From an uncultured Chlamydiae bacterium (GTDB lineage: Bacteria > Chlamydiota > Chlamydiia > Chlamydiales > JAJFMA01), in NCBI GenBank assembly GCA_963713615.1, contig CAVQMM010000001.1:2912001-2976000 (forward strand): a stretch of 64,000 nucleotides of DNA, given 5' to 3'. Within the stretch, counting starts at the first letter, position 1, and every line of letters begins with the position of its first letter. The notes beneath the pieces were generated by a model. That model did no database searches and had not been told where the DNA came from. It was given only the letters and a program-made list of their open reading frames with translations. Below, in pieces: positions 24,936 to 25,581 of the stretch. The translations under genes and the position numbers were made by a program.

Positions 24936-24958
24936 AATAGACCTCTAAGAACAGAATT

Positions 24959-25003
24959 AAAAAAGAAAAAAAATATAAATTCTCCCATACGGGGAAGAAC
25001 ATT
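24959..25003 (-). terminator. Candidate attenuator terminator between the leader ORF and the AGCS gene
   Basis: Minus strand AATGTTCTTCCCCGTATGGGAGAATTT hairpin followed by a long U-rich tract. Confidence 0.55.
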
Positions 25004-25050
25004 TGCGTGTCTGTAGCGTTTACAAAAATCTACAAACTAAAAAAAAGAAA

Positions 25051-25173
25051 TTAATTATTCTGCTGATTGCAATTATTATTGCATTGGAGGGAGAGAAGAA
25101 ATGAAAAGAAAGAAGTGTTAAAAATTGAACTTGTTGTTCTACACGTGATAAAGGTCGACTTTGGCAAACACAT
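25051..25173 (-). CDS. Putative Asn/Gln-rich leader peptide (40 aa)
   Basis: AAGGAGG RBS 5 nt before ATG; MCLPKSTFITCRTTSSIFNTSFFSFLLSLQCNNNCNQQNN*; too short to appear in the ORF track. Confidence 0.7.
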   Translation of the reverse strand: MCLPKSTFITCRTTSSIFNTSFFSFLLSLQCNNNCNQQNN

Positions 25174-25581
25174 ATAAACCTCCTTAGTTTGCATCAATAG
25201 GATTTTCTGTTAAATAAGCAATAAACACAAGGAAAAAAGTGTGAAACAGCAGTTCCCGCTAAAGGATCTGCTTTACATACAATAAAGTTCTTAACCTGGT
25301 TGGCCCAATGATCTCCTTTGTTGACCCTATAGCCATTAAAGCCATCTTTAGGATTCTGATGGCCGTAGAATCCGAAGCCATCGCTCCAGAGGGTGGGACC
25401 GGCACATGCCTCTTGGCAAGGATTACATCATCCAAAAATCGGTAAAATCGAATTTGCGCAATTTGGTCCACCTCGTTTCCGCATTTGCTTTTATTCCTCC
25501 ATTTTGATAAAAATTTTTTTAACGCACCTTGCCGTTGTTGGTTCAGGGTGGGTTCTGAAATCACTTATTGGAGAACTCAAC

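Follow-up and report, generated by a model that had tools for sequence, protein, structure and literature searches.

A conserved asparagine- and glutamine-rich leader ORF ahead of an AGCS-family carrier gene in chlamydiae, a candidate Rho-gated attenuator

The classical leader-peptide attenuators include trpL and hisL, together with the multivalent thrL and ilvL. A design that depends on Rho is described for speFL, in which the rut site overlaps the ORF, a hairpin lies at the ORF 3′ end, ribosome queuing is limited and ribosome stalling is predicted to block Rho (bioRxiv 10.1101/604074). tnaC and cruR are grouped with speFL as cases of uORF-dependent Rho attenuation (PMC12360218). Similarly, the Cys-rich leaders of Mycobacterium cys and Bifidobacterium cbs are presented as having no conserved terminator, and Rho was proposed (PMC1262725). 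Chlamydiae have few known regulators, and the only validated codon-run attenuation that we found in them is that of the Trp-sensing YtgCR of C. trachomatis, which uses a WWW run of Trp codons; the same source treats chlamydial TrpL as unvalidated (PMC7755916). Attenuators predicted in chlamydiae are reported to be mostly without function (PMC2965389). Stalling at Gln codons under nitrogen starvation has been reported (PMC7858274), and one survey covers a single Chlamydiae genome, that of C. pecorum (PMC8632094). In the open-licence literature of PMC and bioRxiv, we found neither a leader attenuator that responds to Asn/Gln nor an element of this kind in Chlamydiae. Comparative attenuator surveys in subscription journals may list Asn leaders.

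The leader ORF and its surroundings

The window analysed here is a stretch of 64,000 nt from contig CAVQMM010000001.1 of an uncultured Chlamydiae bacterium. A first-pass annotation had pointed to an ORF missing from the gene list, with an AAGGAGG ribosome-binding site, as a candidate Asn/Gln-sensing attenuator ahead of an AGCS transporter. The coordinates and sequence of this ORF are correct, and the composition given for its last 11 codons was reproduced: six Asn (all AAT), three Gln and two Cys (TGC). It runs on the minus strand from an ATG at 25173 to a TAA at 25053-25051. The features of the locus are listed below with the evidence for each in brackets.

25202..25230, minus strand: weak candidate sigma-70-type promoter, TTGTGT-17-GAAAAT, for leader and transporter (from its score)
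25179..25185, minus strand: leader Shine-Dalgarno (SD) site AAGGAGG (sequence; an SD-like word precedes 20 of 20 leaders)
25051..25173, minus strand: leader ORF of 40 codons, with a variable Ser/Leu/Phe-rich head and a conserved tail (sequence and homologues)
25083..25129, minus strand: G-free pyrimidine tract of 47 nt inside the ORF, rut-like (sequence; silent-site bias in 20 leaders)
25054..25086, minus strand: putative regulatory tail Q-C-N-N-N-C-N-Q-Q-N-N (tail composition across 20 leaders)
25068..25083, minus strand: small hairpin TGCAAT-aata-ATTGCA in the tail, a candidate pause hairpin (structure prediction)
25031..25050, minus strand: U/C-rich patch directly 3′ of the leader stop (composition across 20 leaders)
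24959..25000, minus strand: terminator-like hairpin and U-run, specific to this genome (sequence, folding and spacer comparison)
23577..24935, minus strand: AGCS-family amino-acid carrier of 452 aa, from a divergent chlamydial clade with a rebuilt pocket (profile and PDB matches)

The terminator-like hairpin (25000-24979, -7.8 kcal/mol) begins 50 nt 3′ of the leader stop, as first described, and is followed by a U-rich run (24978-24959) that opens with TTATA. The transporter has its SD, AGAGG, at 24946-24942 and its ATG at 24935. Inside the leader, the G-free tract (25129-25083), which had also been noted at first pass, contains CTCCC at 25093-25089, and its 3′ end, CCTCC (25090-25086), is able to pair with the leader's own SD. 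The promoter candidate scores 12 against 11.8 for shuffled sequence, that is, at shuffle level. Across the 20 leaders described below, the mean score ahead of the leader was 13.15, compared with 11.95 ahead of the transporter starts and 11.8 in shuffles, a weak sign that leader and carrier share one transcript.

We searched the own genome for comparable ORFs. In a set of 2509 short ORFs that start with ATG behind an SD-like word, the leader alone has nine Asn/Gln among its 11 terminal codons, the runner-up having five. Since four of the 2509 reach 9/11 for some amino-acid pair, the case from a single genome is moderate, and it is conservation in relatives, rather than this count, that settles whether the leader goes beyond chance. 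The leader is single-copy in its genome (blastn and tblastn). A covariance-model scan of 24500-26000 gave no Rfam riboswitch, T-box or leader family near the gathering score, and no Pfam family matched any of the six frames of 24936-25600 when stops were translated as X; the intergenic DNA thus shows no sign of a broken larger gene. In addition, an independent DNA run yielded contigs identical to window positions 25136-25433, spanning the SD and the first 12 codons.

Two minus-strand frames upstream of the leader, 25259-25564 (101 aa) and 25428-25484 (18 aa, behind GGAGG), gave no Pfam match and no homologue. RNA contigs from two studies (X1 and X2) both stop at 25534, with no loose end, at a point where the DNA run continues. 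This position lies 48 nt before the ATG (25582) of a divergent plus-strand gene, and the shared end is a weak hint of a transcript 5′ end; no sigma-70-type -10 box was seen at 25534. Neither of these RNA runs produced a contig over the leader or the carrier, a gap that proves nothing. The divergent gene (25582-26181) has a signal-peptide-like start and weak methyltransferase-like Pfam matches below the cut-off. RNA contigs cover it, and one of them shows a second, divergent copy. The neighbourhood also holds mobile-element remains, namely an integrase-like fragment, a transposase-like ORF (both labels read from translations) and a group II intron reverse-transcriptase fragment (found by scan), at 21929-22412, 26800-27609 and 28485-29720.

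Conservation of the leader among chlamydial carrier genes

A search of 400 order genomes gave 73 carrier matches at E<=1e-120. Together with homologues from metagenome contigs, genome contigs and fetched regions, and after 11 duplicates and seven contig-edge loci had been dropped, 88 were kept. A leader of 27-44 codons with an SD and an Asn/Gln-rich tail precedes 20 of these 88, so the conserved short ORF that the first-pass annotation had proposed to look for in relatives does exist. The 20 leaders, whose start codons were picked by best SD, were found in 15 genomes, which represent four families (f1, f3, f16 and f32), and in five metagenome contigs. SD, ATG, tail and stop recur (TAA in 19 of 20), whereas length and head vary. 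The tail core reads C-N-x-N-C-N-Q-Q, with examples in LQCNNNCSQQQSN (L041), QQCNYNNCNQQQ (L054), QQSNLNCNSQNN (L073) and NNNNQSIQNQLQQ (L117). Carriers with a leader are 50-78% identical to that of the window and lie in unrelated gene neighbourhoods. The leader ORF is real and conserved in several families of environmental chlamydiae, and it is very likely a functional element.

The 68 homologues without a leader divide into 39 whose intergenic space is shorter than 150 nt and 29 that have 150 nt or more. They include all three gene-bearing close relatives from the own family or genus (L002, L003 and L044; L062 is the same locus as L002). In two leaderless loci, L002 and L068, the ORF directly before the carrier is one that we take to be a GntR-like regulator, a possible swap of control system. 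Left out of the 20 were L120, which has the N/Q tail and no hairpin, L033, and the remnants in L115 and L070. L033 (1427-1528, at a contig end of G105) also has a leader, with the terminal sequence NNNCNRNN; the gene that would follow it lies off the contig. In L070 (~2750-2890) the closest carrier segment (84% identity) is frameshifted and the leader has an early stop and no start codon, which reflects either joint decay of leader and carrier or read errors. L115 has an inverted-repeat element with GGGCAA repeats at the position of the leader head, and only a C-N-N-Q-stop remnant. On the carrier tree (FastTree, SH-like support, with eight short or broken proteins and 10 duplicates dropped), leaders are scattered over the clade, including its deep branches. 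This scatter suggests that the leader may be of old origin and may have been lost repeatedly.

The association with the carrier is specific within the limits of the searches made. Within the own genome, 15 of 1801 genes, counting the one behind the leader, satisfy a similar detection rule, and a sequence-only motif model gave one match there. Applied to 151 genomes with 31 candidates scored per genome, the latter model matched at the carrier in three (G000, G053 and G060), and none of its other 15 matches was an SD-led N/Q leader. A DNA pattern hit eight of 401 genomes, in five of which the match was the carrier's leader, and its reversed control gave 0; a DNA search of 300 order genomes returned short matches only, three of them leaders. 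No second target gene for the motif was found within the genomes and candidates scored.

The codons of the tail are strongly biased. Of the 220 codons in the 20 tails (the last 11 of each leader), 88 encode Asn, 57 Gln and 35 Cys, so that Asn/Gln make up 145 of 220 compared with 8.3% of codons in the own genome, counts that are partly circular because the detection rule requires N/Q. Asn is written AAT in 85 of 88 cases (90 of 187 in the carriers), including 43 of 45 at unpaired third positions; Gln is CAG in 36 and CAA in 21 of 57 (CAG in 100 of 268 in the carriers); and Cys is TGC in 35 of 35 (111 of 188 in the carriers), its third base being paired in 32. The own genome encodes a single tRNA for each, with anticodons GTT (Asn), TTG (Gln) and GCA (Cys). 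The Asn and Gln codons of the tail are therefore wobble-read and the Cys codon is read by Watson-Crick pairing, a choice which suggests that sensing concerns Asn and Gln, the Cys codons being there mostly to form the hairpin TGCAAT-loop-ATTGCA. This hairpin is predicted at -3.6 kcal/mol or lower in 18 of the 20 leaders, and its loop varies in steps of three, that is, by whole codons. Its stem shows two double-sided changes (L076 and L083), with covariation not above shuffles in alignment A1, which misplaces rows with longer loops. Two deep leaders (L117 and L120) keep the N/Q tail with no Cys hairpin. The motif TGCAAT-N4-ATTGCA was also considered as a DNA operator and rejected: its spacing varies (4, 7, 10 and 13) and one copy is inverted.

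The tract upstream of the tail is biased as well. The 36 nt before the tail contain 34% C and 9% G, with C exceeding G in 20 of 20 leaders, and fourfold sites within the tract are 92% pyrimidine and 1% G, compared with 57% and 19% in the transporters. The silent-site bias indicates that the tract is selected as RNA, and both observations fit the suggestion, made at first pass, that it could serve as a Rho-loading site. The duplex between the tract 3′ end and the SD is stronger within a leader (-10.25 kcal/mol) than across leaders (-9.08 kcal/mol), with a permutation p of 0.005 in which kin are not independent. When a ribosome footprint is placed on the first Asn codon, the predicted pairing of the SD falls only from 0.86 to 0.74 on average, with no drop in the window. 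The 20 nt after the leader stop are 56% T, 20% C and 7% G.

The carrier and amide physiology

The carrier matches Pfam Na_Ala_symp (PF01235, E 5.6e-73, 246.9 bits) and PDB 6CSE (E 2.7e-45); with TIGR00835 it scores 272.4 bits, 0.25 bit under the cut-off of 272.65. 6CSE is AgcS of Methanococcus maripaludis, a member of the same family, whose pocket I165/F273/T366/W370 limits the substrate to Ala and Gly; I165A or F273A widens the range, and Q170 and E276 contact the amino-acid backbone (bioRxiv 10.1101/293811). Mapped by alignment, the window carrier shares Q170, E276 and T366 with AgcS and differs from it by I165A, G166W, F273Q, W370N, N80T and a change of D308 to A. Both the alanine-type pocket (I165/F273/W370) and the Na+ site (N80/S274/D308) are replaced in the window and in its clade. 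Carriers with a leader have A165, W166, Q273 (90%) and N370 (100%), and all 20 keep Q170 and E276. Clade members without a leader share most of the pocket changes, whereas paralogues keep W370 in 88%; D308 is absent also from most chlamydial paralogues. These residues suggest that the substrate is likely larger and polar, and we infer that it could be Asn/Gln. AGCS members that carry glutamine exist, such as GutA of Campylobacter jejuni (PMC12795558). GutA and GlnT are likened to the window carrier at the level of the family.

Five genomes with a leader were examined for amide metabolism. Rho was found over the cut-off in five of five, AsnRS and GatB in four of five each, both misses falling in the genome that is 81% complete, and GlnRS and AsnA in none of the five. 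A glutamine synthetase domain is present in three, and full AsnB-like proteins among these five occur in the own genome only, which has a type III glutamine synthetase and two AsnB-like proteins and may therefore not depend on Asn/Gln uptake. One AsnB-like gene (G000, C1 2442128-2444016) lies in two frames within a nucleotide-sugar cluster, and the second, near 494226-496035, is intact. GatCAB prefers Gln as amide donor in the bacteria studied (PMC2330236). With AsnRS present and GlnRS absent, the level of free Asn would be read out at Asn codons, and that of the GatCAB amide donor at Gln codons. A scheme in which GatCAB supplies both charged tRNAs was rejected, since AsnRS is present. Across the order, AsnRS occurs in 68 of 73 carrier-bearing genomes and in 266 of 328 others, a weak difference that is confounded by kinship.

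Proposed output, alternatives and comparison with described systems

We propose, with a probability of about 0.5, that the leader is a ribosome-based sensor of Asn- and Gln-tRNA shortage that turns the carrier on by blocking Rho-dependent termination. That Asn/Gln are sensed, whatever the output, we consider probable. A single promoter ahead of the leader would drive leader and carrier, and RNA polymerase would pause at the tail hairpin until a ribosome reaches it. When Asn and Gln are plentiful, this ribosome would complete the leader and depart, pairing between the leader SD and the tract 3′ end would limit reloading, and Rho would load on the bare C-rich tract and terminate transcription in the U-rich spacer. 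In shortage, the ribosome would stall on the AAU/CAR codons just 3′ of the tract, mask the tract end and keep Rho off, which would allow transcription of the carrier. The carrier, which has Gln and Asn where AgcS has the Phe and Trp restricting it to alanine, would then import Asn and/or Gln. The Asn codons would gauge free Asn via AsnRS, and the Gln codons the amide donor via GatCAB. In its fullest form, which we hold to be slightly less likely than not, this would be a lineage-wide attenuator. It would measure charged Asn- and Gln-tRNA through stalling at hungry codons, control Rho within the ORF and limit its own re-translation by SD/anti-SD pairing, and the uncharacterised AGCS clade would be an Asn/Gln importer. 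The Rho reading is based on the ORF, its SD, tail, codon bias, tract and hairpin, on a Rho encoded in these genomes and on a spacer with no conserved terminator. Against it stand the 68 of 88 homologues where the leader is missing and a hairpin covariation at shuffle level. The C/U tract could equally be used for pairing or by a nuclease, the proposal does not account for Cys at the second codon, and the carrier substrate is guessed from pocket residues.

The alternatives differ in output or in signal. Stalling at Asn/Gln codons could act on mRNA stability or processing, or by another Rho-independent route; in the stability variant, the stalled ribosome would shield the transcript from cleavage in the spacer. 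The spacers suit this variant, being U/A-rich, 25-251 nt long and without a shared structure (several are 50-65 nt of mostly U and A), and Rho-independent termination upon codon stalling has been reported for C. trachomatis ytgCR (PMC7755916). However, an effect on stability alone leaves the silent-site C>G bias of the tract in the ORF unexplained, and no switch was found at the carrier SD, where the mean unpaired probability was 0.45 in all four ribosome states and the own duplex was no better than the cross. We regard a Rho-independent output as unlikely.

A distinctly unlikely reading is that the tail acts as a nascent peptide which, in the manner of SpeFL, TnaC and CruR, stalls in the tunnel on a free ligand, either an amino acid or, via the two Cys, a metal. 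N-x-N-C is near invariant, the layout matches speFL, and CruR has a CXXC motif and an intragenic rut (PMC12360218). Nevertheless, two to six codons separate the last Cys from the stop, Ser or Arg takes the place of the first Cys in some leaders and one leader has no tail Cys. Moreover, the silent positions are constrained, which suggests a role of the mRNA and its codons.

The signal might instead be cysteine, sensed by the Cys at codon 2 and the two tail Cys, or the queuosine modification of tRNA-Asn, read through the AAU run. Queuosine (Q34) is linked to NAU codons, and AAU is used nearly exclusively; for cysteine, 12 of the 20 leaders start with MC, the Cys at codon 2 being TGT every time, and the tails hold 35 Cys. 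Both signals appear highly unlikely, for the tail Cys is the Watson-Crick-read TGC with its mostly paired third base and is lost in deep leaders, Gln codons are not queuosine-dependent, and the carrier retains the amino-acid backbone contacts Q170 and E276.

A classical trp/his-type attenuator, in which the hairpin 25000-24979 would be opposed by a CTCCC:GGGAG antiterminator, had been the first-pass interpretation. The window does have a hairpin with a U-run, and the alternative duplex is possible (-11.1 kcal/mol, with a probability of 0.19-0.42 when CTCCC is free). However, no intrinsic terminator is conserved before the carrier: a terminator-like hairpin with U-run was found in only two of the 20 spacers, and beyond the window in one of 19, weakly. 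In addition, a footprint on the first Asn codon abolishes the CTCCC:GGGAG pairing in the window and raises the predicted terminator probability from 0.70 to 0.87. A stalled ribosome that covers CTCCC thus favours the terminator, the opposite of what an uptake gene needs. The leader is not a member of the classical trp/his class, and the chance that such a switch is the mechanism is very small; the hairpin would be at most a local addition. From the original proposal of an attenuator ahead of the AGCS transporter, the conserved Asn/Gln leader stands and the hairpin terminator switch, with its stall-induced antiterminator, falls. Finally, that the leader is a non-functional stretch of AT-rich low complexity, the refutation envisaged at first pass, is scarcely credible: slippage creates AAT runs and the element is missing in most homologues, but SD, start, frame, tail and stop recur before divergent carriers in unrelated neighbourhoods.

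If the Rho-gated reading is true, this would be a conserved cis-acting leader attenuator in the phylum, for amino acids for which we found no published attenuator, and hungry-codon sensing would be joined to a speFL-like Rho output. The orphan carrier clade, with its rebuilt pocket, would gain a substrate open to testing. The element would also show which nutrients of the host these symbionts monitor, and would act in an intracellular symbiont as a direct gauge of the host supply of amide nitrogen. The element spans ~250 nt and is testable in E. coli.

Compared with described systems, the closest analogues appear to be speFL-speF (E. coli, Salmonella), tnaC and cruR, which seem to have the same layout: a short ORF ahead of the gene, a rut overlapping the ORF, a 3′ hairpin and a limit on queuing. 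A rut-like C>G tract beside or in the uORF is present in the chlamydial leaders by composition only. In contrast to these systems, which stall by ligand and arrest peptide, the chlamydial tail is a variable run of Asn/Gln codons; SD pairing is the proposed limit on queuing, and no resemblance in sequence was found. With trpL, hisL, thrL and ilvL, the chlamydial element has in common a run of control codons for amino acids thought to be supplied, and the sensing of two amino acids; its own ribosome-binding site and the control-codon run were found in all 20 leaders. It differs from trpL and hisL in having no conserved terminator/antiterminator, in its Asn and Gln codons, in a carrier as target and in its occurrence in Chlamydiota. 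The Mycobacterium cys and Bifidobacterium cbs leaders likewise have control codons near the stop and a proposed role of Rho, but their pyrimidine motifs follow the ORF and are called not conserved, whereas the chlamydial tract lies inside the ORF and is biased at silent sites; the amino acid and the phylum also differ. YtgCR shares codon-run amino-acid sensing within Chlamydiae, although it senses Trp, inside a full gene and acting in trans, whereas the leader described here is a conserved cis element. Altogether, this leader is probably a new form of leader-peptide attenuation.
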